The position numbers and the translations under genes were made by a program. Shown here piece after piece: positions 6,778 through 52,250 of a stretch of 56,797 bases of DNA (its first letter is position 1; each line of letters starts with the position of its first letter). The notes under the pieces were generated by a model, which ran no database searches, had not been told where the DNA came from, and was given only the letters and a program-made list of their open reading frames with translations. Origin of the DNA: Candidatus Omnitrophota bacterium (GTDB lineage Bacteria; Omnitrophota; Gorgyraeia; Gygaellales; Profunditerraquicolaceae); NCBI GenBank assembly GCA_023229385.1, contig JALNZI010000008.1, positions 1 to 56,797 of the forward strand. Reading direction: 5' to 3'.

Positions 6778-7101
6778 TTAATTGATTATTTTATTATAAA
6801 TTCCTTTAACTATTCTGTTTAATATTTGCTCATATAAATCTAATTCATATAAAGCAACTATTTTTTGATTTTCTGGATATTTTGTAGTTATATATTCTTT
6901 TCTATTTTTTAAAATATCTTTTAATAAATTAATATAATTTTGACCGGCATACCTATTAATAAAAGGATCATCTATATCTTTATTTTTCCTTTTACGTATA
7001 GTTTTTTCTAATACTTTTTCAGTATTAAATAAAGATAAATTGCTTTTATTTTTTCTAGTTCTTTTCATTATTTTAAATGTAAAGATTGTTTTTCTGCCCA
7101 A
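6778..7101 (-). CDS. hypothetical protein (possible clamp-loader accessory subunit)
   Basis: ORF immediately upstream of the clamp loader. Confidence 0.3.
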   Translation of the reverse strand: MGRKTIFTFKIMKRTRKNKSNLSLFNTEKVLEKTIRKRKNKDIDDPFINRYAGQNYINLLKDILKNRKEYITTKYPENQKIVALYELDLYEQILNRIVKGIYNKIIN

Positions 7102-8453
7102 CTATGATCAACAGGACTTGCTTCTACATCTATATCTAATGGAACAATGATCCAAGGCCAGTTTATTTGTAAATCATGACACATTATACATCGCATAACT
7201 GCAATAACGTGTTTTAATTCATCTGGTGCAATATCTAAAACAATTGAATCATGTATTTGCCCAACAATTTTACTTTTCCAATGTTCTCTTTGTTGTGCTT
7301 TTATACCTTGTATTAATGACCATAACAAACAATGAAATGCAGAACATTGAATGGGGTAATTCATAACATCATTCTTTTTCATTAAACCATGAAAAGTAAA
7401 ACCAGTCATAGTTTCTACATAACCAATATTTTGATATTGTTGCCAAATATGTTCACGCCATTCATAATATTTTTTATAACGTTTATGCCAAAAATTATAT
7501 TCAATATCTTGTATATGTTCTGTAAATAATTCTAAATTTTTAAAACCTTTACTTATTAAATGATCTGAAATATGTTTATCTTCAAAAACTATACCTTCAC
7601 CTTTTTTCCAATTTTTGGTTTTAGATAATTTACACCATTTAAAAGCTATATTTATAGCACAATTCTTATAATAGTCACCGTAAAACTGTGGAAAAATAAA
7701 ACCATTTTTAGCAGATTGTCTTAATACTGCATGTGTAGGATCATTTTTATTAAACTCTTTTAACTGAAATATTTCCATTGCCATATCCCTGTGCATATCA
7801 CCTTTCAATATATCATCAATTAAACGTTGATCTTTACAAAAACATGATGCTATCCTGACTTCAAGTTGCTTGAAATCAAGCTCAACTAATTGGTGTCCGG
7901 GACTAGGATAAATAGCAGAACGGCAAATATTCATTGCTTCTTCATCCCTTTTTGGAATATTCTGAAAATTTGGATTGCTTGATGATCCTCTGTACGAACG
8001 TACTAAATGTAAATTATAAAATGGGTGCATTATACCGTTAATAGTTTCCCTTTCAAAAGAATCTAAATAAGTATCCCTTATTTTTTTAAGTTTTTTAATT
8101 TGTAAAAGTATGTTTAATTCAGGTATATTTAATTGTACAAGTGCTTCTTCATCTGTGGAACCTTGTTGTTCTGAAGTTGTTTGTTTATCAATTTTTAGTT
8201 TTTTGACTTTGTACAAAAAATTACTTAATTGTACTGGACTGTAAATATTTATTTTACTTTTTACAGATTTTTCCCAATCTAAATAAAAATCACTTTTAAT
8301 AAATTTATGTTCAAGTTTTGTAATTTCTTTTGTTATTTCTTTTTTCTTAGCTTGAACATAATCTATATTTATGTGTAATCCAGCGGATTCAACTTTAGCT
8401 AATGCTAAAATTCCATCATGAAATAATTTATATGAATCTGTTATATTAGTCAT
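7068..8453 (-). CDS. polA: family A DNA polymerase, polymerase (palm/fingers) part
   Basis: Motif A is LVELDFKQLEVRIAS (DYSQIELR-like), motif B is RQSAKNGFIFPQFYG (RRxAKxxNFGxxYG) and motif C is VGQIHDSIV (HDE-like). NFQNIPKR is also present. Confidence 0.85.
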   Translation of the reverse strand: MTNITDSYKLFHDGILALAKVESAGLHINIDYVQAKKKEITKEITKLEHKFIKSDFYLDWEKSVKSKINIYSPVQLSNFLYKVKKLKIDKQTTSEQQGSTDEEALVQLNIPELNILLQIKKLKKIRDTYLDSFERETINGIMHPFYNLHLVRSYRGSSSNPNFQNIPKRDEEAMNICRSAIYPSPGHQLVELDFKQLEVRIASCFCKDQRLIDDILKGDMHRDMAMEIFQLKEFNKNDPTHAVLRQSAKNGFIFPQFYGDYYKNCAINIAFKWCKLSKTKNWKKGEGIVFEDKHISDHLISKGFKNLELFTEHIQDIEYNFWHKRYKKYYEWREHIWQQYQNIGYVETMTGFTFHGLMKKNDVMNYPIQCSAFHCLLWSLIQGIKAQQREHWKSKIVGQIHDSIVLDIAPDELKHVIAVMRCIMCHDLQINWPWIIVPLDIDVEASPVDHSWAEKQSLHLK

Positions 8454-9045: not shown

Positions 9046-10290
9046 TTAAAAAGGTAATGTTAATAATTCAAATTCTTTCATTTGTTTCATAGCTAAACGA
9101 TATTCGTTAATTGAATCATAAGCACAATATTTTAATGTTTCTTTTTTACCTTCCGGTGTTGCAAAATATTCAAGTAAACGATTCATAGAATTTGCATTCT
9201 TTTCATCAATTGCTTGTAAATAAGGTTCCACAGTACTCGAATAATCAATAATGCCAAAATTAACATAGGTTTGAAATTTTAAGTTGGTAATACCTGTACG
9301 ATTATCCAATATATGTGCTGCTAACATAGCATCATGATACCAACTTTTAACCCTAGTTTTTAGTTTAACCCAACTCCAAGTTTCTTCAAATTTCATATTA
9401 TGTGAAAACTTTTTAATATACTTATTATTTAGTAAATTAATAAAAGGTTCTCTTTTTTCAATTTCATTAGGCATTGTAAAAACATAAACATTATCTTCAT
9501 CTGTTGCAACAGAACAACAAACAATTTTATGACTTTTAGCATAAGGTTTTAAACCTGTCGTTTCATAATCAAATGCAATCATTGCATTGTTTGGTATTTG
9601 TTCTAAAACACTTAAATCTGTTATATAATTAATAGTAGGTTCTTGATAAACTGGAAATTCTTTATCTAAAATTGCTAAAGCATTTTTTAAATCTTTTTCA
9701 AATATATTTGCAACTTCTACACGATTACTTTGCTGCACAAATGATGGTAAAAAAACAGGTGCAATCCAACATTTAAGTTCCTGATCAGGTATTATAAAGC
9801 CACGCCATTTATCAATACCTTCCAAAGATTTTTTCCAACGTGAACCAATTACACTTGTTAATGCAATTTTTCCAAACAAAACAATTAACTTAGGTTTGTA
9901 TTGTTGTATGATACGAAAAATATTTAACTGGCAACAACTAATTTCCTTTGCAGTAGGTATTCTACTTTTACCTGTTTCTTTATCATAAGTAAAACAACGT
10001 ACAGCATTTATGTTTATACAATCTTTTTCAATATCAATTCCTAATTTATTATAAACATGATAAATATAATTTTCACTACCCTGAAATGGTTTACTTAATT
10101 GGTCATCTTGAAAGCTTGTAAAGCTACCAATATTCATAATACCTTTTTTAAATTGACCAAAAGGTTCCATTTTAGGGTTAGGGCAATTTATATCATTTTT
10201 ATACAAACCACAACTATAACATGAAAATCCTCTTTTTTTAACAGAGAAATTATCAATTTTTGTTTCTTGTTTTGTAAAGAATCCAGTCAT
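9046..10290 (-). CDS. polA: family A DNA polymerase N-terminal part: UDG family 4-like domain plus 3'-5' exonuclease domain
   Basis: The N-terminal Cys cluster SCYSCGLYKNDINCPNP...KGIMNIGS resembles the family-4 UDG CxxCxL...IGExPG block, with the catalytic GEAPG replaced. Exo I is IAFDYETTGL, Exo II WYHDAMLAAHILD and Exo III YCAYDSINEY. Confidence 0.7.
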   Translation of the reverse strand: MTGFFTKQETKIDNFSVKKRGFSCYSCGLYKNDINCPNPKMEPFGQFKKGIMNIGSFTSFQDDQLSKPFQGSENYIYHVYNKLGIDIEKDCININAVRCFTYDKETGKSRIPTAKEISCCQLNIFRIIQQYKPKLIVLFGKIALTSVIGSRWKKSLEGIDKWRGFIIPDQELKCWIAPVFLPSFVQQSNRVEVANIFEKDLKNALAILDKEFPVYQEPTINYITDLSVLEQIPNNAMIAFDYETTGLKPYAKSHKIVCCSVATDEDNVYVFTMPNEIEKREPFINLLNNKYIKKFSHNMKFEETWSWVKLKTRVKSWYHDAMLAAHILDNRTGITNLKFQTYVNFGIIDYSSTVEPYLQAIDEKNANSMNRLLEYFATPEGKKETLKYCAYDSINEYRLAMKQMKEFELLTLPF

Positions 10291-37615: not shown

Positions 37616-38107
37616 ATGACAGAAAGATTTGAAATATTTTTTAATCGGCTTATGGGATATGAAGGTGGTTTGGGAAATGATCCTGATGATCATGGAGGTC
37701 AAACTAAATATGGGATAAGCCATAAATCATATCCATATCTTGATATTGCAAAACTTAATTTAGAAAGAGCAAAGGAAATTTATTGGAATGATTATTATAA
37801 ACCTTTGAAAATTGATAATTTTATAAATGACAGAATTGCTTGGCAGTTATTTGATTTTGGTGTTAATGCGGGAATAGGTACATCAGCAAAAATGTTGCAA
37901 AAGATTCTTAAAACAACTCAGGATGGTATTATTGGAAAAATAACTTTGGAAAAAGTAAATTTATGGAATGGTAAATACCCTCTATATATTCATTTTATTT
38001 CGGAGAGAATTAAGTTTTATTATAAAATAACAGACAATGATCCTACTCAAATGAAATTTTTTAAAGGTTGGATGTTTAGGATTATTGAAATACCTTGGGA
38101 TTTATGA
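37616..38107 (+). CDS. endolysin, glycoside hydrolase family 108 (lysozyme-like)
   Basis: YEGGLGNDPDDHGGQTKYGIS matches the GH108 signature EGGxxNDPxDxGGxTKxGI. Confidence 0.8.
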   Translation: MTERFEIFFNRLMGYEGGLGNDPDDHGGQTKYGISHKSYPYLDIAKLNLERAKEIYWNDYYKPLKIDNFINDRIAWQLFDFGVNAGIGTSAKMLQKILKTTQDGIIGKITLEKVNLWNGKYPLYIHFISERIKFYYKITDNDPTQMKFFKGWMFRIIEIPWDL

Positions 38108-41445: not shown

Positions 41446-41901
41446 ATGGCGAAACACACCATTAAAATTAAAAAGTATTCTGATGTTATTGAAGAATACG
41501 TGAATGGTACAGTATTACCGGTTACGCCTGGAATGCTGATTGAGATAACAAGTGATAATGTAGTACAACCACATTCTACTGAGGATGGTGCAGCTTTGAT
41601 TATGTTTGCTTTGGAAGATGAACTTCAAGGTAAAGGTATTGATGATGCTTATGCCGTAAGTACAGCAAGTCCAATTGTGAAAGTACCAGTTCAATGTTGG
41701 CTACCCGGTCATGGTGATATGGCTTATGCTTTGTTAGCAGACGGTGAAACTGCTGTAATAGGTAGTTGGTTAGCCAGTAATGGCGATGGGAAACTGAAAG
41801 TCAGTACTACGAATCCAATTGGTCAGGCTGTTGAAGCTGTTGATATGAGTGGTTCATCAGGTGCTGATCCTAGTGGTCGTATTATTGTACGTATTAATTA
41901 A
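41446..41901 (+). CDS. small head protein (decoration/auxiliary capsid protein)
   Basis: 151-aa Gly/Ala-rich protein immediately before the major capsid gene, with a strong SD (aaaggaggttaagaaATG). Confidence 0.35.
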   Translation: MAKHTIKIKKYSDVIEEYVNGTVLPVTPGMLIEITSDNVVQPHSTEDGAALIMFALEDELQGKGIDDAYAVSTASPIVKVPVQCWLPGHGDMAYALLADGETAVIGSWLASNGDGKLKVSTTNPIGQAVEAVDMSGSSGADPSGRIIVRIN

Positions 41902-41916
41902 AAGGAGGGGAAAATT

Positions 41917-43002
41917 ATGTTAGATGTTAATGTTGATTTGATGGGTAATGGTGGCGGACAAGGTGAAATTGCCGCTTATATGCAACAGAATAACAGATTA
42001 GACCCTGCTGTATTGCGCCCGTATAGGGGAACTGACGGAAAAGCTTATATTTCAGTTTTTAAAGGAGGTGATCCTAAAAAACCTGAAAATTATTCTGTTA
42101 TTAATGTAAATGAAGCTACACTTCGTCCGTATGAGTGGAGACAATTAGATGAAGCTGTTATTACTATTGCTGAAAATAGGTTAGTTGGAGTAAATGATCT
42201 TATTTCCAATGGACTAACTTATAATTTGGGCAATGCTATGGGTACGACCGTACTTGAAACACATACTATATCAGATGCAATGGAAGCTGATCTTACTATG
42301 GATGCTGTTTCAAGGGCTAAAGGTGATCGTCCTGTTTTTGGAACTAAGTACACTCCAATTCCAATAATTCATGTGGATTATGAAATTAATGCAAGGGTAC
42401 TTGCTTCAAGTCGTTCACTTGGCAATCCTTTGGATACTTCATCTGCTGAACGTGCTGCACGTAAAGTAGCAGAAAAATTGGAAGATATGTTGTTTACTAA
42501 CACTACTTATGGATTTGGTGGTGGAACTATTTATAGTTACATTAACTATCCTGATAGAAGTTTAATATCACTTACTACTTATGGTAATTGGGCTACTAGT
42601 ACTACTACCGGAGCAAAAATCATTGAAAGTGTACTTGCAATGAAACAAGCTTCTATTGATGATAATTATTTTGGTCCTTGGAAGTTGTATGTACCAACGA
42701 ATTTTGAAACTCGTTTGGATAATGATTATGATACGGTAACTCCGGGTACGACTATACGTGAAAGAATATTAAAAATTGGTGGTATTCAATCGGTTACTGT
42801 GGCTGATCATCTTCCTGCTTCAAATGTTTTGTTAGTACAAATGACTAGTAATGTTGTAAGATTAATTCGTGGAATTGGTCTTACAAATGTTGAATGGCAA
42901 ACTGAAGGAAAATTCGTTAATAAATACAAAGTATTAACTATACAAGTTCCTCAAATTCGTTCTGATTATAACGAAAAAACTGGAATTGTACACATGAGTT
43001 AA
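41917..43002 (+). CDS. major capsid protein
   Basis: Size (361 aa), position, the strongest SD in the window (aaaggaggggaaaattATG), and a terminator-like hairpin plus T8 immediately downstream. Confidence 0.6.
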   Translation: MLDVNVDLMGNGGGQGEIAAYMQQNNRLDPAVLRPYRGTDGKAYISVFKGGDPKKPENYSVINVNEATLRPYEWRQLDEAVITIAENRLVGVNDLISNGLTYNLGNAMGTTVLETHTISDAMEADLTMDAVSRAKGDRPVFGTKYTPIPIIHVDYEINARVLASSRSLGNPLDTSSAERAARKVAEKLEDMLFTNTTYGFGGGTIYSYINYPDRSLISLTTYGNWATSTTTGAKIIESVLAMKQASIDDNYFGPWKLYVPTNFETRLDNDYDTVTPGTTIRERILKIGGIQSVTVADHLPASNVLLVQMTSNVVRLIRGIGLTNVEWQTEGKFVNKYKVLTIQVPQIRSDYNEKTGIVHMS

Positions 43003-43009
43003 ATTTAAT

Positions 43010-43032
43010 TCACTAATCAAGTGATTTTTTTT
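43010..43032 (+). terminator. putative terminator/attenuator after the major capsid gene
   Basis: TCACT-aatca-AGTGA hairpin followed by TTTTTTTT. Confidence 0.4.
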
Positions 43033-43059
43033 ATTATATTTGTTTAAAAAGTCTTAATC

Positions 43060-43515
43060 ATGGTAGAACGTAAAAGAATTAGAAACGATGTAACAATTAA
43101 AATGCCTATTGTTGAAGAACAAATAGTTACGGATGAAGAAAAAGAAAAAATTGCTATTGAAGAAAAAGCATTTAATGAAGAAGTAACAACAGTAAAGTCA
43201 GAACTAATTGAACGTAAACCGATACGATGGAAAAAAGTAGGTGGTGGAAGTTTTTCTTTAAATAATCGGTTTATTAAACCGGGACAAATATTTTTAGCAT
43301 TTCCAGAAGAAATACCTGTTCAATTTCGTGATCTTGTTATTCCTTTAGAAGAAAAACCTTTACCTTTAAATATTGAAGAAATTAAAAAGAAATCATCTTA
43401 TAAGTTAGAGGAAAAATCTGATGGATGGGATATTTTAGATTCTTTTGGTAAGGTTTTAAATGAAAAACCAATGGAGAAAGAAGTTGCTGAACGTATTTTA
43501 GTTATGTTACAATGA
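43060..43515 (+). CDS. charged 151-aa protein carrying a roughly 50-aa module also present inside the 1084-aa glycosyltransferase fusion
   Basis: RKPIRWKKVGGGSFSLNNRFIKPGQIFLAFPEEIPVQFRDLVIPLEE here, versus IRKPIRWKKMGNGSFLFNNCYIKKNQVFTAFSEDIPKQFRDVIIPLEE at about 47815-47960. Confidence 0.5.
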   Translation: MVERKRIRNDVTIKMPIVEEQIVTDEEKEKIAIEEKAFNEEVTTVKSELIERKPIRWKKVGGGSFSLNNRFIKPGQIFLAFPEEIPVQFRDLVIPLEEKPLPLNIEEIKKKSSYKLEEKSDGWDILDSFGKVLNEKPMEKEVAERILVMLQ

Positions 43516-44207
43516 TATGGTCCGTACCTAAAATATGGGAAGGTGGTGATGCTTGGATATTAGGTGGTGGACCATCTATTATTGATCAATTTAATATACC
43601 TAAAGAGGTGTCAGAAAAGGTATTATTGAAACAATTACCTTTGTCTGCATATTCAAGTTATATGAAACTTATTCATGATAAACATGTTATAGGTATAAAT
43701 ATAGCTTATTTAATAGGTAATTGGATTGATATTGTATTTTTTGGAGATAAAAATTTTTATCTTACACATAAGGAAGGTTTGTTTAATTTTCCGGGATTAA
43801 AAATTAGCTGTAATCCAGAAGTTGAAAAATGTTTTTGGATAAAATATTTAGCACAAGATAAAGCTAAACATTTAGGAATTACAACAAATCCAAAAATGAT
43901 TAGTTGGAATAAAAATAGTGGAGCTGCTGCTATAAGTTTGGCTGTTCATACAGGAGTTAAAAGAATATTTCTTTTAGGTTTTGATATGAAATTGAATGAT
44001 GCAAATAAACAGCATTGGCATAGTGAATATAAAAATCCACAAGAACCATTAAATTTAAGAAAGTTGCCATTTCAAAGACATTTAACTGGTTTTCCTAGTA
44101 TTTATAAAGATGCAAAGAATCTAAATGTACAAATTTACAATGTAAATTCAGATAGTGCAATTACACAATTTCCATGTATTAATTTAAAAGAAGCTTTGGA
44201 ATTATGA
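43512..44207 (+). CDS. putative Rossmann-type glycosyl/sugar-nucleotide transferase (DUF115/MptE-like)
   Basis: GGDAWILGGGPS...HVIGINIAYL...GAAAISLAVHTGVKRIFLLGFDM. The GxGPS and LGxD blocks are typical of that family. Confidence 0.35.
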   Translation: MIWSVPKIWEGGDAWILGGGPSIIDQFNIPKEVSEKVLLKQLPLSAYSSYMKLIHDKHVIGINIAYLIGNWIDIVFFGDKNFYLTHKEGLFNFPGLKISCNPEVEKCFWIKYLAQDKAKHLGITTNPKMISWNKNSGAAAISLAVHTGVKRIFLLGFDMKLNDANKQHWHSEYKNPQEPLNLRKLPFQRHLTGFPSIYKDAKNLNVQIYNVNSDSAITQFPCINLKEALEL

Positions 44208-45409
44208 AAATTATAAATTGTCCAATTAGTGGTAGTGAAAAAGGGGTAGAATTTCTTAATTTAGGAAAAATACCACTTGTAAATAATTTATGTGATACAA
44301 AACAAGACGCATTAAATTGTGAAAAGTTTTCATTAGCTGTTCAGTTTTTTCCTGAAAGTAAAGTTACTTGTTTAACAGAAACGGTGGATAAGGACAATTT
44401 ATTTCTTCATTATTTGTATCAATCGGGTGTAAATAAGCCTTATTTAGATCATTGTGCTGAAATGTATGATTATTTATCCCATATTATTGATTTTAAAGAC
44501 AAAGATGTTGTATTAGACATTGGTGGAAATGATGGTAGTTTATTAAAAGAATTTAGAAAGGAAAATCAAAATCTTCATTATATAAATGTTGATTGCAGTC
44601 GTAGTTTTATTGATGTTAATCGAGAATCTGGAATTGAATATATTAACGAATATTTTGGTGAAAGTATATCTTTACCATATAAAGCTAAGTTGATTACATC
44701 AACAAATGTATTTCAACACACGGAACCCATACGTTCATTCGTAAAAGGTATTTGTAGGAATTTGTCAAATGAAGGTGTTTGGTGTTTGGAATTTCCTTAT
44801 ATTCTTACAACACTTGCAAATGATAATTATGATCAGGTTTATCATGAACATGTGTATTATTTTTGTTTACAGAATATAATTGATATAACAAAACAAGAAG
44901 GCTTAAAAGTCATTAATGTTTCTTATCATGATATGCACGCTGGAACATTGCGAGTTTTAATTGTGAAAGAATCTTCACGCAGACAACCAGATAATACAAT
45001 ACTTTCTTTTCTTAATTTGGAAAAAACACTAACAAAAGAATACTATTTGAAGTGGGGATCACAAACAACATCGAAAATTAAGCAATATCAGGTAGATATG
45101 AAAAGACTTGTTATGAATGGTGCAAAGGTTGCTTGTTTTGGTGCTGCTGCAAAAGGGTGCATCTTTTTAAATACTTGTGAAATAGATAACACAATGGTAC
45201 AATTTATTATTGATGATACTCCTTTTAAGCAAGGTAAATTTGTTCCGGGAACAGGAATAGAAGTTGTAAGCAGAAAAATATTAAAAGATGTTAAAATAGA
45301 TTATATGATTATTCTTGCTCATAATTTTAAAGATTATATAATAAATTCATTAAAGGGGCAATATAATGGTAAATATATTTTAATGTTTCCTGATATGAAA
45401 ATATTATAA
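44204..45409 (+). CDS. sugar C-methyltransferase family protein (TylC3/EvaC-like; N-terminal Zn-like domain, SAM-binding domain, C-methyltransferase C-terminal domain)
   Basis: NCPISGSEKGVEFLNLGKIPLVNNL resembles CxxCGSxxLxxVLDLGxQPLAN. Motif I is VVLDIGGNDGSLL. The C-terminal domain is CFGAAAKGCIFLN...IDDTPFKQGKFVPGTGIEVVS...MIILAHNFKDYI. Confidence 0.65.
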   Translation: MKIINCPISGSEKGVEFLNLGKIPLVNNLCDTKQDALNCEKFSLAVQFFPESKVTCLTETVDKDNLFLHYLYQSGVNKPYLDHCAEMYDYLSHIIDFKDKDVVLDIGGNDGSLLKEFRKENQNLHYINVDCSRSFIDVNRESGIEYINEYFGESISLPYKAKLITSTNVFQHTEPIRSFVKGICRNLSNEGVWCLEFPYILTTLANDNYDQVYHEHVYYFCLQNIIDITKQEGLKVINVSYHDMHAGTLRVLIVKESSRRQPDNTILSFLNLEKTLTKEYYLKWGSQTTSKIKQYQVDMKRLVMNGAKVACFGAAAKGCIFLNTCEIDNTMVQFIIDDTPFKQGKFVPGTGIEVVSRKILKDVKIDYMIILAHNFKDYIINSLKGQYNGKYILMFPDMKIL

Positions 45410-45432
45410 TATTGTGAAATAAATATAATTAT

Positions 45433-46290
45433 ATGCTAACAGCTAGCAATATCGAAAAAATTTGTATTGTCACAGTATTTGATAGACATTATAAAGAAGC
45501 AGGGAAAACTTTGTTTAATTCAATCAGAAGGCATACAAATTGTGATGGAATAGATTTTAAAGTTATTACATCAGATGAGGAAGTATTAAATGAATGGGGA
45601 AAGGATAATTGTTATTTTGTAACGGATAATATTAAAAATAGGTATAAGAATGTTCAATATTCTAAGGATTTACCTATTGAGCGATATGCTTTATCATGGT
45701 ACAGATATGAAATATTCAATATGACTGATTACGATAGAGTAATATGTATTGATTCTGATTGTATATGTGTTCAAGATATTAGTTATTTATTTAGTGAAGA
45801 ATTAAATCAGTATGATCTTATTTCTGTTGAAGATCATTTTGTATCAAAAATACTACCTAATTTATATTCTAAATTAGAAAAGAATGGTTGGAACTTTACA
45901 AATTTATACAAAAGGGTTTCTTTAAAACAAGTTGATATTCAACCTGCTGTACTTGTAATTAATAAGAATGTCATAAATAGTATATGGTATAATGAGTTAT
46001 TAGCTTATGCTAATAATACGGGTTTTACTTATTCTATTGATCAAGGTATTCTAAATGATTTTATTTATCAAAAAAATATAAATATCAAATTACTACCGTT
46101 GGAATGGAATTATCAAGACCTTTATGCTATTCGTTGTTCAGAACTTGCAGTAGTTAATCCAATTATAATTCATTGTCAAGAATCCAAACCTTTTAAACTT
46201 GTTAGAAAAAATGTAGATGTACGAATACAAAAATTTTATGATCAATGGTGGTATGAATATGATTATGCCAAATCATTGAAAACAACAACA
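45433..46290 (+). repeat. internal duplication, copy 1 of the GT8-like domain
   Basis: About 60-70% nt identity to 46294-47110. It includes an exact 42-bp match at 45775-45816 (gatattagttatttatttagtgaagaattaaatcagtatgat). Confidence 0.8.
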
Positions 46291-48687
46291 AGGATGAAAG
46301 GTAAGATATGTATAACTACTACATTTGATTATAACTATAAACATGCAGGACAAACTTTGCTTAGTTCAATCAGAAGACATACAAATTGTGATGGAATTGA
46401 TTTTAAAATAATTACTAACGATCCAAAGGTTGTGGCTGAGTTTGGAGCAGAAAACTGTCATATTATTACTCCTGAAATACAAGCCAATTATAATAACGTG
46501 AAATATATTACTGATATTCCTAAAGAACAATATTATTCTTCGTGGTATCGTTATGAGATGTTTAATTTTGAGGGATATGATCGGGTAATATGTATTGATT
46601 CTGATTGCATTTGTATTGAAGATATTAGTTATTTATTTAGTGAAGAATTAAATCAGTATGATTTAATATCAACAGAGGACATGATTGTTTCTCACATGTT
46701 TAAACAACATATTCCTTCGTTAGAGAAGAACTACGGATTAAATTTAGTAGGTTTACGACGTAGAATAGCTGCTGGTCAGGTTGATATTCAACCGGCATTA
46801 CTTGTTGCTAATAAAAAAATTGTAAATAATAAATGGTATAAGCAATTAATAACTTATGCCAATACAACAAATCATACTTATTCTATTGACGAAGGTATCT
46901 TAAATGATTTTATTTATTTGAAAAGATTGAACATTAAGATATTACCAATGGAATGGAATTATATGGATACTTATGGTGCTCAAATATTGGAACTTCCTGA
47001 ACCTAAAAAACCTTTTATTGTGCATTGTCAAGAATCTAAACCTTTTAAAAAGGATAAAGCAGATGTTAATGTGCGAATACACAAATGGCATAATAAATGG
47101 TGGGAAGAAGCTAATCATATAAAATATTCAACTATTGTTGCTATTATTGTTTGGAATAGATTTGAAAATCTAAAATTATGGGTAAATGCTTGGAATCAAT
47201 GTATTCAAAGTGATGTTAAGTTAATAGTTGTTCACAATCTTGAAAGTGACAATAATAGATATTCTCAGTTATGTAAAGATAACGGAATAATGTATATTCC
47301 AAGAGAAAATAAAGGTTTTGATATTGGGGCTTTTCAAGATGTATGTAAAGAAAGATTGGAAGGTTTTCCTAATGATTGGGAAAATTTAATCTGGATTACT
47401 GATGATTGTATTCCAATGGCAAAAGATTTTGTTGAACAATTTTTAAAATGTTTACCAAAAATACCTTGTTATGAAATATCTCAGGAAGTAAAAACTCATG
47501 TTAGAACTACCGGATTTTTAGTCACCAAAGAAATATCTAAAAAACTTGTTTTTCCAAAAGACCCGATAGAGAATAGGGAAGATTGCTATCAATTTGAACA
47601 TAAAGGCTTTTTACAAGTTAAAAATATGTATGAACAGATTGTTAGTATGGGAAAACAACCAGTAATGGTTAATAAGGATTTAAGGTTATCTCCATTATGG
47701 GATTCAGGAGTAAGATGGCAACTTAAATTAATGGGTAAACATGAAGCTATTTTTCCATTTATTAAAATAAATGTTGAACCGATAAAAGTAGATGTTAAAC
47801 TAGTTGAAGCAGAATTACCTATAAGAAAACCAATTCGATGGAAAAAAATGGGTAATGGTTCCTTTTTATTTAATAATTGTTATATTAAAAAAAATCAAGT
47901 ATTTACTGCATTTTCTGAAGATATTCCAAAACAGTTTCGTGATGTAATTATTCCATTAGAAGAAATAGTTTCGGAAATTAAAAAAGTTATTCCAGTTGAA
48001 CCGGTTAAATTAAATAGTAAACCGATTATATATAATGTTTTGGATGAGTTGGCTATTAAGCATAAATCAGATAAGTCTTCTAGGTATCATAATTACGCAG
48101 TAAAATATGATAAAATATTATTTCCGTTTAGAGAATCATTTTCATCAATTTTAGAAATTGGTGTATCACAGGGACAGTCTACAAAAATGTGGACCGATTA
48201 TTTTGAGAATGCTACTATTCACGGTGCAGATATTGAAAAAGGTTCTAAAATTTGTGAATCATATTCTAATAGAGTAAAATTTCATGAACTTGACCAACGA
48301 GATTTAGCACAACTTAAAAATCTTGAACAATTTTCTCCATTTGATTTTGTAATAGATGATGGTAATCATTTTTGGTTTGAACAAATTCTTACATTTGAGG
48401 CTTTGTTTCCTTATGTTAGAAAAGGAGGAATATATATTGTTGAAGATACTACTACTTCTTATTGGGAGGAATATAAAAATAATCCGATTTCACCCGTAGA
48501 ATATTTTAAGACATTGGTAGATGAAGTTCATCTTAAAGGGGCAAGAGGAAATATTCCTATAAATCCCCCGCAGGAATTTGGTAATTGGGAAAAAGGGTGG
48601 CATCGTAGGGAAGATTGTTTTGAATCAGTACCTTTATTTGAATCAATTCAATTTATGAATGGTTTTATTGTAATTTATAAAAGATAA
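45433..48687 (+). CDS. 1084-aa multidomain fusion: GT8-like + GT8-like + GT-A (GT2-like) + shared 50-aa module + TylF/MycF-like O-methyltransferase
   Basis: The two GT8 units each carry the donor-site DxD block VICIDSDCIC(V/I)(Q/E)DI and the HxxGxxKPF block (IIHCQESKPF and IVHCQESKPF). The GT-A block is IVAIIVWNRFENLKLWVNAW...LIWITDDCIP. The O-methyltransferase has motif I ILEIGVSQGQSTKMW, then DFVIDDGNH and GGIYIVEDT. Confidence 0.7.
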   Translation: MLTASNIEKICIVTVFDRHYKEAGKTLFNSIRRHTNCDGIDFKVITSDEEVLNEWGKDNCYFVTDNIKNRYKNVQYSKDLPIERYALSWYRYEIFNMTDYDRVICIDSDCICVQDISYLFSEELNQYDLISVEDHFVSKILPNLYSKLEKNGWNFTNLYKRVSLKQVDIQPAVLVINKNVINSIWYNELLAYANNTGFTYSIDQGILNDFIYQKNINIKLLPLEWNYQDLYAIRCSELAVVNPIIIHCQESKPFKLVRKNVDVRIQKFYDQWWYEYDYAKSLKTTTRMKGKICITTTFDYNYKHAGQTLLSSIRRHTNCDGIDFKIITNDPKVVAEFGAENCHIITPEIQANYNNVKYITDIPKEQYYSSWYRYEMFNFEGYDRVICIDSDCICIEDISYLFSEELNQYDLISTEDMIVSHMFKQHIPSLEKNYGLNLVGLRRRIAAGQVDIQPALLVANKKIVNNKWYKQLITYANTTNHTYSIDEGILNDFIYLKRLNIKILPMEWNYMDTYGAQILELPEPKKPFIVHCQESKPFKKDKADVNVRIHKWHNKWWEEANHIKYSTIVAIIVWNRFENLKLWVNAWNQCIQSDVKLIVVHNLESDNNRYSQLCKDNGIMYIPRENKGFDIGAFQDVCKERLEGFPNDWENLIWITDDCIPMAKDFVEQFLKCLPKIPCYEISQEVKTHVRTTGFLVTKEISKKLVFPKDPIENREDCYQFEHKGFLQVKNMYEQIVSMGKQPVMVNKDLRLSPLWDSGVRWQLKLMGKHEAIFPFIKINVEPIKVDVKLVEAELPIRKPIRWKKMGNGSFLFNNCYIKKNQVFTAFSEDIPKQFRDVIIPLEEIVSEIKKVIPVEPVKLNSKPIIYNVLDELAIKHKSDKSSRYHNYAVKYDKILFPFRESFSSILEIGVSQGQSTKMWTDYFENATIHGADIEKGSKICESYSNRVKFHELDQRDLAQLKNLEQFSPFDFVIDDGNHFWFEQILTFEALFPYVRKGGIYIVEDTTTSYWEEYKNNPISPVEYFKTLVDEVHLKGARGNIPINPPQEFGNWEKGWHRREDCFESVPLFESIQFMNGFIVIYKR
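46294..47110 (+). repeat. internal duplication, copy 2 of the GT8-like domain
   Basis: Exact 42-bp match at 46621-46662, with parallel protein blocks HAGQTLLSSIRRHTNCDGIDFKIIT and EAGKTLFNSIRRHTNCDGIDFKVIT. Confidence 0.8.
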
Positions 48688-48688
48688 A

Positions 48689-49384
48689 ATGCTTGTATTA
48701 ATCACACCAACAGGAAGTCGTCCAAAGCAATTTGAATTATGTATGCAATGGATGAAGCAACAAACTTATACAGGTAAAGTTGTTTGGATTGTTATAGATG
48801 ATTGTTTTCCTAAAACAATAGATATTCTTAATGAAGATTTTCGTGAAAATTGGTTAATAATTAAAAAATACCCAAAACCTTTATGGGAAATTGGGAAAAA
48901 TACACAGGGTAGAAATTTAAAAATTGCTATTGATACTATTAATGCTTTTCCTAAAGATTGGGTTGAAACAATTTATATAATTGAAGATGATGATTATTAT
49001 AAACCTGAATATTTACAAACAATGAAAGACCGTTTGAAAGGGTTTACATTAGCAGGTGAGGTTAAAACAGTATATTATAACATTAAGTATAAAATGTTTA
49101 AGGAAATGGCTAATACAAGCCATGCAAGCCTATTTCAAATATGCTTTACAGCTGATGCTTTACCTATACTTGAAAAATATCTAAATGATGGATTTATTGA
49201 TATTAATTTTTGTAAAAATATAAAGAATATTAATTTATTTGAAGCTAATAAATTAGCAATAGGTATAAAAGGTTTACCTGGAAGACCTGGAATAGGAATT
49301 GGGCATAGACAAAAAGGAATTTTAGATATAAATTTAAACAAGTTAAAAGAATTAATTGGTGAAGATTATAAATATTATTTATAA
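48689..49384 (+). CDS. putative GT-A-fold glycosyltransferase
   Basis: N-terminal LITPTGSRPKQFELCMQWMKQQ (GT-A beta1-alpha1) and an acidic EDDDYY (DxD-like) block. Confidence 0.4.
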   Translation: MLVLITPTGSRPKQFELCMQWMKQQTYTGKVVWIVIDDCFPKTIDILNEDFRENWLIIKKYPKPLWEIGKNTQGRNLKIAIDTINAFPKDWVETIYIIEDDDYYKPEYLQTMKDRLKGFTLAGEVKTVYYNIKYKMFKEMANTSHASLFQICFTADALPILEKYLNDGFIDINFCKNIKNINLFEANKLAIGIKGLPGRPGIGIGHRQKGILDINLNKLKELIGEDYKYYL

Positions 49385-50073
49385 TGCTAAGAAAAATACA
49401 ACATAATCCTATTTTCATAACCGGAGTTGAACGTTCGGGTAGTACTATTATTGCAAGAATTTTAGATTTGTGTAATGTAAGTTCTGGAAATTGTAATAAT
49501 ATGTTTGAAAATGTTATTATTAATGAATTTAATACAGATTATTTGAAGAATTTTTCATTAACTTTTCCTAAAACAGCAGATATTGACATACCAATAAGAT
49601 GGAAAGGTGCAGTTGATGGTGTTTTATTGGTTGAGAATTGCCTTGACAAGCCCTATATGGTTAAATCTGCTATGTTAGCAAGGTTATGGCCAATATGGAA
49701 TTATGCTTATCCTGATGCCAAATGGTTAATAGTTCGTAGGCGTACAGGAGACGTAATACAGTCTTGTTTAAAAACAGGTTATATGAAAACTTTTAAATCT
49801 GCTGAAAATTTATTATCTTTGGGTCTTACAAAAGAAGCAGAAGGTTGGCTTTGGTGGATACATCAATACGAAAATAAATTTGTTGAAATGATTAAAGCTG
49901 GTTTAAATTGTAGAATTATATGGCCTGAAAGAATGGTTACTGGCAATTATGAACAAATGTATGAAACAATTGAATGGTTAGGTTTAAAATGGAATGAACA
50001 AATACCAGAAATTATTGATCCATTATTAAGTAAAAGTAGGGAGGGTATTATATATGAGAACAACAGTAGATGA
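49384..50073 (+). CDS. sulfotransferase family protein
   Basis: The 5'-PSB-like motif is PIFITGVERSGSTIIARIL (compare PxFIxGxxRSGTT). The 3'-PB-like motif is AKWLIVRRRTGDVIQS (RxxxDxxxS). Confidence 0.6.
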   Translation: MLRKIQHNPIFITGVERSGSTIIARILDLCNVSSGNCNNMFENVIINEFNTDYLKNFSLTFPKTADIDIPIRWKGAVDGVLLVENCLDKPYMVKSAMLARLWPIWNYAYPDAKWLIVRRRTGDVIQSCLKTGYMKTFKSAENLLSLGLTKEAEGWLWWIHQYENKFVEMIKAGLNCRIIWPERMVTGNYEQMYETIEWLGLKWNEQIPEIIDPLLSKSREGIIYENNSR

Positions 50074-50425
50074 TGTAATTGATATTTTAGATAATACAGA
50101 ATTAGATGATTCTGTTATTGAAAAATATATTAATAGTGCAAATGTATTTGTTACAGGTACATTAGGTACAACTTTGAGTGTGTCTATTCTTACAGAAATT
50201 GAAAAATGGATGGCTGCACACATGATTGTTTCAACTCGTGAACGTATGTCTAAAGATGAAGGTGCTGGTGGGGCTTATATTAAATGGTCTGGTCAATGGG
50301 GTATGGGTTTAAACTTCACACCTTATGGTCAAATGGCAGTTGCTTTGGATACCACAGGAGTATTAAATAACATAGCAAAGGGTAAATCTAATGCTTGGGT
50401 TCATGCTATACCTAATTTTGATTAA
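50054..50425 (+). CDS. head-tail connector/adaptor protein (gp6-like)
   Basis: Size, position and an SD of gtagggagggtattatatATG. It has the SVSILTEIEKWMAAHMI helix typical of head-tail adaptors. Confidence 0.45.
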   Translation: MRTTVDDVIDILDNTELDDSVIEKYINSANVFVTGTLGTTLSVSILTEIEKWMAAHMIVSTRERMSKDEGAGGAYIKWSGQWGMGLNFTPYGQMAVALDTTGVLNNIAKGKSNAWVHAIPNFD

Positions 50426-51794: not shown

Positions 51795-52250
51795 ATGGGT
51801 TGTGCTTTAGATAGTAGTAATGCTATTGCTGGTGTTGGTACAATTTTTCATAGATGGGATGATGTTTCATCATGGGTTGAATTGGCAGAAATTAATTCAA
51901 TTTCTGGTCCGTCTATGTCACGAGAAACGATTGATGTAACATCACTAAGTTCAACAGGGGGCTTTAAAGAGTTCATTGCTGGATTTCGTGACGGTGGTAC
52001 TGTAAATTTAACAATGAACTTTACAAGGGCTACATTTTCTATTATTTATGCGGATTTTGAAGATGATTCTCCACATTTTTATGAAATTGTATTACCTGAT
52101 GATGTAAATACTTCATTTGAATTTTGTGGTTTGGTAACAGAATGCCCGTTGGATATTCCAACAGATGATAAGATAACTGTAAGTGTTACTATTAAAATAT
52201 CTGGAAGGGTTGCTATGAATAGTGGTGGAAGTGCTGCACCTTCATCCTAA
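51795..52250 (+). CDS. major tail protein (TP901-1-like)
   Basis: Size of 151 aa, an SD of aaaggaggtaaaattATG, and Ser/Thr/Gly-rich beta-type composition. It lies immediately upstream of the chaperone pair and tape measure gene. Confidence 0.55.
   Translation: MGCALDSSNAIAGVGTIFHRWDDVSSWVELAEINSISGPSMSRETIDVTSLSSTGGFKEFIAGFRDGGTVNLTMNFTRATFSIIYADFEDDSPHFYEIVLPDDVNTSFEFCGLVTECPLDIPTDDKITVSVTIKISGRVAMNSGGSAAPSS

Follow-up and report, generated by a model that had tools for sequence, protein, structure and literature searches.

A hypervariable island of glycan enzymes in the structural operon of an uncultured phage family, probably acting on virion proteins

The region at 43060-50073 of the window, which is the whole 56,797-nt stretch of DNA analyzed here, is best read from sequence comparison as one allele of a hypervariable, swappable island of glycan enzymes common to a whole phage family. 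To judge from its genes alone, the island probably directs O-glycosylation of virion proteins in the cytoplasm, possibly accompanied by sulfation, and it most likely coats them with a strain-specific glycan. The phage represents an uncultured siphophage lineage, and the binning of MAGs hints weakly at Bacteroidota as hosts.

The cassette is filled by six co-directional ORFs, designated as g1 to g6, instead of the seven genes of the original prediction. All features given below with coordinates are on the plus strand. Tight packing with ATGA overlaps was recognized at g1/g2 and g2/g3, while the later junctions do not follow this pattern (+23, +1, −1, and −20 nt, in order after g3). The placement in the virion operon was corroborated on both flanks. 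The 5′ boundary is the gene of an HK97-type major capsid protein of 361 aa (41917-43002; phrog_771 with the e-value 2.4e-23, and phrog_264), for which tblastn retrieved annotated major capsid proteins, and whose close relatives carry Linocin_M18/DUF6260. It is preceded by the gene of a head decoration-like protein of 151 aa (41446-41901; phrog_766 "head decoration", 4.5e-7), relatives of which faintly carry Phage_cement_2. The 3′ boundary is the first gene of the head-tail joining block (50054-50425; phrog_37884, 3.2e-8, function unnamed), a conserved gene that follows the island immediately in every complete locus. Downstream of it are Neck1 and connector, terminator, tail-tube, chaperone, and tape-measure genes, including the major tail (tube) protein gene at 51795-52250 (phrog_158 "major tail protein", 2.7e-20). 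Going by operon position alone, late expression of the island would be expected.

The island was found at the same locus across a large phage family. More than 100 related viral contigs show the order capsid, g1, g2, variable core, usually g6, and connector, and the core comprises 0-11 genes drawn from more than 100 families. In 47 complete loci, the capsid gene is followed in turn by g1, g2, the variable core, (g5), g6, and the connector gene. An independent g1-seeded sample of 80 loci gave the same picture: the capsid gene lies ≤700 nt upstream of g1 in 65 of 67 testable loci and nearby in the remaining two, g2 is immediately downstream of g1 in 65/65, and g6, which usually closes the island on its 3′ side, stands just before the connector gene in 39/47. 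The island spans 1.0-9.9 kb in this sample. The core glycosyltransferases belong to GT2, GT8, GT9, GT11, GT47, and GT92, with Gly_transf_sug and KpsC/S-like proteins in addition; many methyltransferases, DegT aminotransferases, PseB/CapD-like dehydratases, a 2-epimerase, and a B12-radical-SAM enzyme are also encoded. Even phages whose capsid proteins are 92-95% identical differ in their cores.

The g2 protein (231 aa; 43512-44207) is a minimal Maf-like transferase with a sialyltransferase-type fold. It had been predicted as a DUF115/MptE-like transferase, and profile or structure evidence agrees with a Maf/sialyltransferase-fold enzyme. Alternatively, g2 may be a kinase, since its PF01973 score falls short of the Pfam gathering threshold and pterin and thiamin pyrophosphokinases share its fold. 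Maf enzymes catalyze cytoplasmic O-glycosylation of flagellin Ser/Thr (bioRxiv 10.1101/2023.12.03.569772), and the Clostridium botulinum Maf accepts both Kdo and Neu5Ac donors (PMC11339370). Unlike bacterial Maf, g2 is devoid of acceptor-binding domains. It is proposed to be an initiating protein O-glycosyltransferase.

The g1 protein (151 aa; 43060-43515) consists of two modules joined by a variable linker: an N-module (aa 52-97, nt 43213-43350; AF2 pLDDT about 90) and a C-module (aa 112-150, nt 43393-43509; pLDDT 83-89). It has no match in Pfam, PHROG, NCBIfam, or PADLOC, its AF2 model has no fold match, and no relatives of known function were detectable. Its family comprises 1084 clusters, the best 150 listed matches span 104-192 aa, and the Ser in a GGGS loop is nearly invariant. 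The module predicted to be common to g1 and g4 was confirmed (62% identity over 58 aa, e-value 9e-22), and "docking-like" is a reasonable label for its putative function. Enzymes of four different families carry the N-module as a fusion: in one case it is joined to an MptE-like domain plus an FkbM methyltransferase, and in another to a KpsC/S-like domain. The minimal islands are g1 with g2 (L009) and g1 with g6 (L053), and thus g1 is the partner common to the islands. Maf-2 requires a small cis-encoded specificity factor (bioRxiv 10.1101/2023.12.03.569772). By analogy, g1 may be an acceptor-specificity or docking adaptor, although it is not a four-helix bundle as GlfM is.

The assignment of g3 (401 aa; 44204-45409) as an NDP-hexose 3-C-methyltransferase of the TylC3/TcaB9 type is strongly supported by PF08484 (2.7e-27) and by a full-length match to the D-mycarose 3-C-methyltransferase structure 4rv9 (2.5e-43); TcaB9 and 5t64 were also matched. 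This gene is rare, found in 3 of >100 loci and, among the fetched loci, only in L080 and L081. The window includes neither genes to make the 4-keto sugar substrate of g3 or to reduce its product nor an ulosonic-acid pathway, and therefore the donors are taken as host-supplied.

The g4 protein (1084 aa; 45433-48687) is a fusion. Two GT8 domains (nt 45454-46287 and 46300-47124) are matched by PF01501 in two stretches (1.8e-10, 41.3 bits) and are 58.8% identical to each other. They are followed by an uncharacterized domain without a family match (aa 565-774, nt 47125-47754), an inserted copy of the g1 N-module (nt 47791-47964; 62% identical to g1), and a class-I SAM methyltransferase (nt 48040-48684; PF13578; phrog_21658, 3e-23). 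The ~75-aa insertion carrying the N-module is missing from the two closest homologs, which marks it as a lineage-specific insertion. The predictions of two GT8 domains and of a methyltransferase are thus supported. The proposed third GT-A domain at aa 565-774 was unsupported by Pfam, PDB sequence/profile search, and hhalign, and the methyltransferase shows no TylF-specific signal beyond the class-I SAM level. The predicted repertoire of glycosyltransferases, a C-methyltransferase, a further SAM methyltransferase domain, and a sulfotransferase stands, less one glycosyltransferase domain.

The g5 protein (231 aa; 48689-49384) is a GT2-type glycosyltransferase of the GT-A fold, as predicted, on indirect evidence. 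It has no Pfam match itself and only weak GT-A matches in PDB, while PF00535 is present on ~30 of its 120 closest homologs (42-56% identity), and the motifs ITPTGxRP and IEDDDYY, the latter including EDDD, are invariant. The g6 protein (229 aa; 49384-50073) is a PAPS-type sulfotransferase resembling TPST. This assignment, also predicted, is supported by PF13469 (8.8e-8, P-loop only) and by the family profile, which matches TPST1/2 over the full length (1.4e-7 for TPST1) and Stf1 (9e-6). Residues G14, R17, G19, and R119 are invariant, and S127 is nearly so. The nearest solved relatives of g6 sulfate protein tyrosine, not sugars, and L053 encodes g1 and g6 with zero glycosyltransferases; a sulfated glycan is therefore not the sole reading. 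The proposed target of g6 is a glycan or, directly, a protein hydroxyl.

A mechanism can be proposed from these families. Late in infection, newly made virion proteins would be modified in the cytoplasm by soluble phage enzymes. Ser/Thr O-glycosylation would be started by g2 with a nucleotide-activated sugar from the host, for which a CMP-ulosonic acid such as CMP-Kdo is one possibility. The g1 protein, always encoded immediately 5′ of g2, would provide acceptor recognition or docking in trans, a pairing likened to the GlfM-Maf-2 tripartite system, and other island enzymes that carry a fused copy of its N-module would be drawn to the same place. The variable core would then extend the glycan; in this window, it consists of the GT8 pair and the SAM methyltransferase domain of g4, the GT2 enzyme g5, and the 3-C-methyltransferase g3, which would make a branched-chain NDP-sugar donor. 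The g6 enzyme would act last, transferring sulfate onto the glycan or straight onto a protein hydroxyl.

Two sequences are likely candidates for the acceptor. One is the tail-tube C-terminal tail NSGGSAAPSS (aa 142-151, nt 52218-52247). Of 31 distinct loci that have both g2 and a tail gene, ~30 show an S/G/T-rich C-terminus, the exception being L047-type phages; this C-terminus is absent or altered in an island-less clade (L026, L125, L126, and L127/128) and also in L053/L120. The other is the Ser-rich loop of the decoration protein, DMSGSSGADPSG (aa 133-144, nt 41842-41877), just before the last strand. Most loci with an island keep this loop, and the island-less clade has an acidic one in its place; this correlation is weak because an NSGGG loop occurs in distant relatives without an island as well. 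The acceptor correlation is based on one island-less clade of 4-5 contigs, probably a single loss.

The cytoplasmic chemistry that was predicted, with no flippase, polymerase, or exporter, agrees with the protein features. A Kyte-Doolittle scan of the cassette gave a single marginal stretch, located in g2; a high-confidence structure model shows it as a buried strand/helix. Signal peptides are absent as judged by eye. None of 445 island proteins exceeds two marginal stretches in a hydrophobicity scan; thus, multi-pass membrane proteins were not seen. An initiating phosphoglycosyltransferase, flippase, polymerase, ligase, or Gtr-type membrane protein was found in 0 of ~75 islands.

O-antigen glycosyltransferases are mostly soluble or peripheral, and so the absence of membrane proteins is also compatible with remodelling of the host envelope, in which the soluble enzymes would act on lipid- or nucleotide-linked precursors of LPS, capsule, or S-layer glycans. 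Host flippases and ligases would export the altered glycan, leading to superinfection exclusion or to progeny freed from debris. The repertoire is that of O-antigen/capsule loci (GT2, GT8, GT9, GT11, KpsC/S-like, DegT, CapD-like), the hypervariability mirrors host surface-glycan diversity, and lipid-linked intermediates are also substrates of soluble glycosyltransferases. This explanation is nevertheless unlikely. The island is fixed family-wide between the capsid and connector genes of a late structural operon, the membrane machinery is missing, and the conserved core enzymes resemble the protein modifiers Maf and TPST. Envelope remodelling also leaves the conserved g1 without a place, and it lacks a lysogenic-conversion rationale, since the large ORFs scanned included no integrase. 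As for the predicted virion substrate, lipid-linked acceptors at the inner leaflet stay compatible with a cassette free of membrane proteins, but a virion protein has become more plausible because of the fixed position, the conserved Maf-like enzyme, and the acceptor motifs missing in island-less relatives.

Slightly less probable still is a protein target outside the virion, either g1 itself with the g1-like module in g4, or a host flagellin, pilin, or receptor; a soluble factor would then be modified or a host structure disabled, and the virion would not be decorated. The sole partner in all islands is g1, including those of only g1 and g2 or g1 and g6, its GGGS loop holds the nearly invariant Ser, and the native Maf target is flagellin (bioRxiv 10.1101/2023.12.03.569772). 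However, an N-module inside or fused to enzymes suits docking better than an acceptor role, and both the structural-operon position and the acceptor-like sequences of the tail-tube and decoration proteins point to the virion. Flagellar genes are not reliably linked to the islands; the single case, L115, is probably a chimeric assembly.

Hypermodification of DNA, with glycans put on modified phage bases to evade restriction, is very improbable. LPS-related phage glycosyltransferases, GT8-like folds among them, decorate 5hmC with mono- to trisaccharides, and some such clusters are near structural genes (bioRxiv 10.1101/2023.12.21.572611), but the 20 largest replication-module ORFs scanned yielded no C5-cytosine methyltransferase, TET/5mYOX, or dNMP hydroxymethylase, and the island is distant from the replication genes, which form an opposite strand block. 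The Maf-like enzyme, the TPST-like sulfotransferase, and the 3-C-methyl sugar pathway are foreign to known DNA-glycosylation clusters. A soluble glycoside or nucleotide-sugar metabolite, such as an antibiotic-like deoxysugar, with no macromolecular acceptor is equally improbable: the g3 family is best known from antibiotic deoxysugar pathways (TylC3, TcaB9) and methyltransferases abound in the islands, but aglycone-forming enzymes (PKS, NRPS, or similar) and exporters are absent, the rare g3 stands against a conserved core of the Maf-like enzyme and g1, and the position in the structural operon is left without explanation.

The novelty first claimed for methylated virion glycans was overstated, since mycobacteriophage precedents include methyltransferases (Corndog) and the same genomic position: in Omega, glycosyltransferase and methyltransferase genes separate the major head gene from the connector gene. 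Virion glycosylation in phages has precedents that cover the tail tube and a methyltransferase (PMC11600133, PMC12363180). Cluster O mycobacteriophages encode an O-methyltransferase upstream of three glycosyltransferases modifying capsid and tail tube (PMC11600133, citing Freeman 2023). If modification of virion proteins by the island is true, related phages would come to differ in their surface glycans through swapping of the core, in much the way that bacteria do through their O-antigen loci.

The window carries an incomplete tailed-phage genome with a GC content of ~29%. The minus-strand left arm contains replication genes, namely those for a family-A polymerase, an SNF2 helicase, a DnaB-like helicase, RecA, a clamp-loader-like ATPase, and RuvC. 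On this strand, 9046-10290 and 7068-8453 comprise a gene whose product joins a UDG-superfamily domain to a 3'-5' exonuclease domain and, downstream of it, a gene of its own for the family-A polymerase. With the exonuclease and the polymerase on separate genes, the polymerase appears to be split and to bear a UDG-like addition at its N-terminus. The plus-strand right arm starts with the genes for the small and large terminases, portal, endolysin, Mu-F-like head morphogenesis protein, and protease/scaffold. These are followed by a decoration-like protein, the HK97-type major capsid protein (41917-43002), and head-tail joining genes (the first at 50054-50425), and then by the major tail protein, two chaperones, and a tape-measure ORF of >1238 aa that is open at the window end. 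The endolysin-like gene (37616-38107; phrog_315, 7.8e-43) lies in the head-gene block between the portal and Mu-F-like morphogenesis genes, an unusual location for a lysis gene. No near-identical DNA was found among 50,697 phage records, an exact look-up of g4 in public assemblies returned no record, and no tRNAs were found in the window, which represents an uncultured phage. Three of the four capsid relatives binned in MAGs were assigned to Bacteroidota or Bacteroidales, while other homologs were named Dysgonamonadaceae, Bacteroidales, Patescibacteria, or "archaeon". The MAG bins thus give a faint hint that the host is possibly a member of Bacteroidota.

Between the capsid gene and the first joining gene, the ORF layout contains six closely packed genes, not the seven counted in the original prediction: g1 (43060-43515), g2 (43512-44207), g3 (44204-45409), g4 (45433-48687), g5 (48689-49384), and g6 (49384-50073). 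The g1/g2 and g2/g3 junctions are ATGA overlaps, and the spacers at the other island junctions are near zero. The GC content of this island (43060-50073) is 0.280, compared with 0.326 in the upstream and 0.313 in the downstream structural genes, which fits horizontally exchanged cassettes. The 57-nt spacer after the capsid stop codon (43003-43059) contains a short AT-rich hairpin (TCACT-AATCA-AGTGA) followed by eight T. This hairpin is below the G+C criterion of the terminator scan, and promoter and terminator scans of the operon revealed nothing exceeding the shuffled expectation. It could act as a weak attenuator, by which the enzyme genes would be expressed less than the capsid gene.

The g3 protein is a TylC3-type C-methyltransferase, as predicted. 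It aligns along its whole length with the NDP-sugar 3-C-methyltransferases of known structure 4rv9 (e-value 2.5e-43, residues 3-393), TcaB9 (4.9e-33), and 5t64, and shows the three-domain architecture. Its C-terminal domain matches PF08484 with 96 bits (cut-off 23.5), while the N-terminal zinc-binding domain PF08421 scores 24.5 bits, under the cut-off of 31.3; by eye, the N-terminal 40 residues include three Cys and no CxxC pair. The reaction requires an NDP-4-keto sugar and a downstream reductase, neither of which is encoded in the window, and a rhamnose-type pathway of the host is assumed to supply the substrate. In g4 (1084 aa), two tandem stretches match the GT8 domain PF01501 (41.3 bits; cut-off 24.3), in agreement with the prediction. 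These repeats are 58.8% identical and each contains the motif IDSDCIC. The C-terminal domain of g4 is a class-I SAM methyltransferase (PF13578; phrog_21658, 3e-23). The claim of a third, GT-A glycosyltransferase domain at aa 565-774 (~210 aa) found no support in Pfam, PDB, or hhalign searches: this segment has no Pfam match at e-value ≤0.05 and no PDB match by sequence (phmmer) or with a 3-sequence profile, and its hhalign probability against the g5 family is 6.7%, a TDDC motif being the only remnant.

The g5 protein has no Pfam match of its own. Among its 120 closest homologs (42-56% identity, full length), ~30 carry PF00535 (GT2), and some homologs are named "glycosyltransferase" by JGI. The motifs ITPTGxRP and EDDD are invariant in the family, which comprises 1086 clusters at 90% identity in metagenomes; every PDB match is a GT-A protein, none of them significant. 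The identification of g6 as a sulfotransferase was borne out by its family profile, which aligns over its full length (positions 4-215) with human TPST1 (e-value 1.4e-7) and also matches mycobacterial Stf1 (2zq5; 9e-6). PF13469 (Sulfotransfer_3) scores 33.1 bits (cut-off 27) at residues 9-28, the PAPS loop only. Residues G14, R17, G19, and R119 are invariant in the family (5'-PSB loop, 3'-PB Arg), and S127 (3'-PB Ser) is nearly so. No g6 homolog was found in the 50,697 phage records. A credible TM segment is missing from all six proteins, as had been stated, and a PADLOC search for defense and anti-defense systems gave no matches.

The g2 protein was resolved by fold search alone, and no significant match in PDB was obtained by sequence or profile. 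Its central catalytic domain has the Maf/sialyltransferase-type fold. The score against PF01973 (22.9 bits, residues 129-161 only) is below the gathering cut-off of 34.6; a precomputed PF01973 match is present in 7 of the 120 closest homologs listed, and PHROG 4603 is matched at 1e-29. With 231 aa, compared with 632 aa for the Maf protein 5mu5, g2 is devoid of the flanking helical/TPR acceptor-binding domains. No flagellar genes were found in the window, and neither NeuB nor a cytidylyltransferase was found among the island families scanned. Metagenomes contain 763 clusters of g2 homologs at 90% identity. By analogy, g2 is predicted to be a minimal Maf-like protein O-glycosyltransferase, for which Ser/Thr would be the acceptor and a CMP-activated ulosonic acid may be the donor.

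No relative of known function was found for g1 in any sequence library or fold database searched. In this protein, a linker that is variable and often acidic connects a beta-rich N-module to a C-module made of a hairpin plus a helix, and g1 homologs form 1084 clusters at 50% identity in metagenomes. It is the sole gene that all islands have in common, even the ones in which g2 or g6 is its only companion. Located directly 5' of g2 with the ATGA overlap, g1 is translationally coupled to g2, and g2 is the next gene downstream of g1 in all 65 testable loci. The module predicted to be common to g1 and g4 was recovered with 62% identity over 58 aa (e-value 9e-22). Fusions of the g1 N-module were seen with four otherwise unrelated enzyme families of the islands: g4, F23, F48, in which the partner is a KpsC/S-like domain, and F68 from locus L010, in which it is joined to a second MptE-like domain and an FkbM methyltransferase. 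The copy in g4 (47791-47964, aa 787-844) is placed between the third domain and the methyltransferase domain as a ~75-aa insertion, which is missing from the two closest g4 homologs (L080 and L081). The insertion is thus lineage-specific as far as the sequences compared indicate, and its 62% identity to g1 of the same phage suggests a recent intragenomic duplication. Because g2 is a bare domain, and because g1 is present in every island, is coupled to g2, and lends its N-module to other enzymes, g1 may be an adaptor for acceptor specificity.

Conservation of the locus was analyzed with 81 related IMG/VR loci chosen by capsid or g4 similarity, whose capsids are 38-81% identical. The proposed check of related phages for a cassette at the same locus gave a positive answer, since nearly all 81 loci share one frame, in which the capsid gene is followed by g1 and g2, then by a variable stretch, in some loci by g5 and usually by g6, and finally by the connector gene. 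Between capsid and connector, the 47 complete loci have a gap of 0.3-9.2 kb. The ORFs of the islands represent 113 families, and the variable core contains 0-11 genes from >100 families. An independent sample of 80 loci was seeded with the g1 profile. The capsid gene is located within 700 nt upstream of g1 in 65 of the 67 testable loci and nearby in the remaining two, g6 immediately precedes the connector gene in 39 of 47, and the island is 1.0-9.9 kb long (median 5.0 kb). Minimal islands consist of g1 and g2 (L009), g1 and g6 (L053 and L120), or g1, g2, g5, and g6 (L074), while one clade is island-less (L026, L125, L126, and L127/128). Phages with capsids 92-95% identical have no core (L009), a core of 3-4 genes (L013 and L023), or a different core of 4-5 genes (L006 and L021), which indicates that whole cassettes are exchanged.

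The variable core was surveyed by a Pfam census of 82 family representatives. Glycosyltransferases include GT2 (9 families), GT9, GT11, GT47, GT92, Gly_transf_sug/TcdA-like, and KpsC/S-like Capsule_synth proteins, and there are many SAM-type methyltransferases, FkbM among them. Sugar-nucleotide enzymes are represented by a DegT aminotransferase (1.5e-98), a PseB/CapD-like dehydratase (4.9e-92), a UDP-GlcNAc 2-epimerase (3.4e-82), and RmlD-like reductases. A complete pseudaminic or legionaminic acid pathway was considered and rejected: PseB-like, DegT, and 2-epimerase proteins are present, but the families scanned include no NeuB or cytidylyltransferase. The core also encodes a B12-binding radical-SAM enzyme and fusions of GT92-MT, sulfotransferase-MT, and GT2-MT-GT. 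Islands with B12-radical-SAM and fusion enzymes include L025 (12358-13539), L033 (11747-12949), L034 (11620-12963), and L005 (12570-14957), so mega-fusions such as g4 are typical of the locus. In L063 (11812-13755), an NAD-dependent sugar epimerase/dehydratase is interrupted by a LAGLIDADG-type domain, which resembles an intein or homing endonuclease lodged in a glycan gene of a phage. In L115 (GCA_900198705.1, FZPS01000062.1, a 15.9-Mb record), g1-g2-g5-g6 and two joining genes, with no capsid gene upstream, are flanked by flagellar hook genes (FlgD and Flg_hook) and an ISL3 transposase. This is probably a chimeric or concatenated assembly and not a real cellular context.

The locus thus encodes soluble glycan-building and glycan-tailoring enzymes, fixed in the late structural operon as a conserved frame with an exchangeable core. 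It very probably directs a glycan or sulfate modification, and, with clearly less confidence, the substrate is probably a virion protein. The comparison strengthened the earlier proposal of a virion substrate, yet it stands as a plausible reading only. It is suggested by the invariant position of the island across the phage family, the resemblance of the conserved enzymes to protein modifiers (Maf and TPST), the precedent of the mycobacteriophages Che8, Corndog, and Myrna, and candidate acceptor features that track the island. Two candidate acceptors are encoded in the plus-strand arm, the decoration protein (41446-41901) and the tail-tube protein (51795-52250). Of the 31 distinct loci with both g2 and a tail gene, ~30 encode a tail-tube protein whose C-terminus is S/G/T-rich; it is NSGGSAAPSS in the window and NSGSGSGSGT, NSGSYSGSPA, or SSGGTTTP elsewhere. 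The decoration protein of most island-bearing phages has a D[ML]SGSSG loop. In the island-less clade, the tail-tube protein ends with EISGTVTVA and similar sequences, and the decoration loop is DDEDNH. This correlation, observed at the sequence level, is suggestive only, as the island-less phages constitute one clade and L047-type phages have g2 without an S/G/T-rich tail. The Ser-rich decoration loop was rejected as a clean marker of the island, given an NSGGG loop in distant island-less relatives including the cultured Brevundimonas phage MaInes. The capsid C-terminus was rejected as a discriminating acceptor, being the same in island-bearing and island-less phages.

In the proposed mechanism, g2 would start Ser/Thr O-glycosylation of a virion protein and g1 would confer acceptor binding. 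The donor for g2 may be host CMP-Kdo, which is present in Gram-negative hosts. An island of only g1 and g2 would be workable without sugar-synthesis genes, as Kdo would come from the host. The fusion of the g1 N-module to a KpsC/S-like domain fits ulosonic-acid chemistry. Tyrosine-protein sulfotransferases (TPSTs) sulfate protein tyrosine, and the presence of g6 without any glycosyltransferase in L053 makes direct protein sulfation a live alternative to glycan sulfation. It is also possible that the acceptor is g1 itself, whose GGGS loop has a nearly invariant Ser, or a host protein.

Remodeling of the host envelope by the island enzymes is disfavored. The missing membrane proteins are not decisive on this point, because O-antigen glycosyltransferases are typically soluble. 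The late-operon position, the protein-modifying affinities of the core enzymes, the lack of an integrase among the ORFs scanned, and the absence of initiating and export components from ~75 islands argue against it. The 445 island proteins from these ~75 loci have at most two marginal hydrophobic stretches each, and by this measure a flippase, polymerase, ligase, or initiating phosphoglycosyltransferase is not seen; the predicted absence of a flippase, polymerase, and exporter thus extends across the islands. The integral membrane components of Gtr, Iap/Wzy-beta, and O-acetylase-type modules were likewise not found in the 445 proteins. DNA hypermodification is unlikely, because C5-methyltransferase, TET/5mYOX, and hydroxymethylase genes are absent from the island and from the 20 larger ORFs of the replication module, and the enzyme set is unlike the described DNA-glycosylation clusters. 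A small-molecule product is unlikely as well, as there is no aglycone or export machinery.

Modification of a virion protein by phage enzymes would be of a kind already known. To our knowledge, a few mycobacteriophages are the only phages in which virion glycosylation by phage enzymes has been demonstrated so far; in these, it weakens recognition by antibodies. According to PMC11600133 and PMC12363180, which cite Freeman et al. 2023 (Cell Host Microbe 31:1216), phage glycosyltransferases glycosylate capsid and tail-tube subunits in Che8 (cluster F), Corndog (cluster O), and Myrna (cluster C). As in the island, soluble phage glycosyltransferases are encoded within or beside the structural genes of these phages, where the modification of the virion is demonstrated, whereas it is deduced from genes here. 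The original prediction regarded methylation enzymes as unprecedented in such cassettes. In cluster O mycobacteriophages, three tandem glycosyltransferases are preceded by an O-methyltransferase (PMC11600133), and mycobacteriophage Omega (NC_004688.1, 9877-17674) encodes a glycosyltransferase and a methyltransferase directly 3' of the major head gene, so this claim is not tenable. Omega has a second glycosyltransferase gene directly 5' of the head-tail connector gene, with a transposase between; its genes occupy the same capsid-connector slot as the island, and its methyltransferase is homologous to the methyltransferase domain of g4. Mycobacteriophage methyltransferases beside glycosyltransferases are 30-35% identical to this domain. 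The rest of g4, including its glycosyltransferase domains, lacks mycobacteriophage homologs in the phage collection, where g1 and g6 are without any match, and no mycobacteriophage is among the g2 matches listed. The island differs from the mycobacteriophage cassettes in its Maf-like enzyme, novel small partner, and sulfotransferase, in its hypervariable core (0-11 genes, >100 families), and in its phage lineage and probable host phylum.

Maf proteins are cytoplasmic O-glycosyltransferases that modify flagellin Ser/Thr before assembly, and in the tripartite Maf-2/GlfM/flagellin system, acceptor binding is provided by a small factor encoded in cis (bioRxiv 10.1101/2023.12.03.569772). Maf enzymes are able to use Kdo and Neu5Ac (PMC11339370). 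The pairs GlfM-Maf-2 and g1-g2 share a small cis-encoded partner of a Maf-type enzyme. Maf proteins are ~630 aa and linked to flagellar and nonulosonic-acid genes, while g2 has 231 aa and no such link. GlfM is a four-helix bundle, and g1 is a beta-rich two-module protein without the fold or homology of GlfM; thus, any parallel between the two would be functional, not evolutionary. Like O-antigen/capsule loci and flagellin glycosylation islands, the locus has conserved flanks around hypervariable glycosyltransferases, sugar-nucleotide-modifying enzymes, and methyltransferases, exchange between close relatives, and a GC content lower than its flanks. O-antigen/capsule loci are on cellular chromosomes, whereas the island is in a virus structural operon and has no Wzx, Wzy, ligase, ABC exporter, or initiating phosphoglycosyltransferase. 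For g6, full-length profile alignment with TPST1/2 and Stf1 is accompanied by low sequence identity.

Distant homologs of g2 in cultured phages (24-31% identity, e-values down to 3e-15) were found from PAJU2, P1 (PmgP), and the Caulobacter phiCbK-like jumbo phages. The D3-like Pseudomonas phage PAJU2 (NC_011373.1, 7780-10162) has a mini-cassette between the head-closure and tail-terminator genes, composed of the Maf-like "alpha-2,3-sialyltransferase" gp10, the hypothetical protein gp11, the methyltransferase gp12, and gp13, and P1 PmgP is annotated with a putative morphogenetic function. Unlike the island, these phages have no g1 or g6 homolog and no variable core. No function was reported for their Maf-like genes in the literature searched, and they would be tractable for testing virion modification.

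Taken together, the observation behind the original prediction is partly confirmed, with six genes and one unsupported domain, and its interpretation is partly supported and plausible. Within the literature searched, the conserved g1/g2/g6 frame, the Maf-like initiator with its novel partner module, the sulfotransferase in a phage structural operon, and the 3-C-methyl sugar enzyme appear to be new. The foremost feature that appears new is the core's O-antigen-like hypervariability in a very abundant lineage of uncultured phages. It is tentatively proposed, with somewhat more doubt than confidence, that the locus is a siphophage "virion serotype locus", in which g1, g2, and g6 would target the tail-tube and head-decoration proteins, the exchangeable core would equip these proteins with glycans that differ between strains and carry methyl groups, branches, and sulfate, and the g1 N-module would be a new portable docking domain.

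The locus suggests that virion glycosylation is widespread in environmental phages; the families of g1, g2, and g5 have ~750 to 1,100 clusters each. It would rely on enzymes other than those of the mycobacteriophages (a Maf-like initiator, a sulfotransferase, and enzymes for C-methylated sugars) and be organized like a bacterial serotype locus, with exchangeable cores between conserved flanks. If this is true, the 231-aa Maf-like enzyme and its 110-150-aa partner would be a compact soluble kit for cytoplasmic protein glycoengineering, and the orphan "sialyltransferase-like" genes of PAJU2, P1 (PmgP), and phiCbK-like phages would gain a testable function. The particles of the island-bearing lineage would fall into glycan serotypes shaped by diversifying selection. 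This would add a new layer to the diversity of phage surfaces, which may bear on adsorption, environmental stability, evasion of grazing and immunity, and phage-phage competition.
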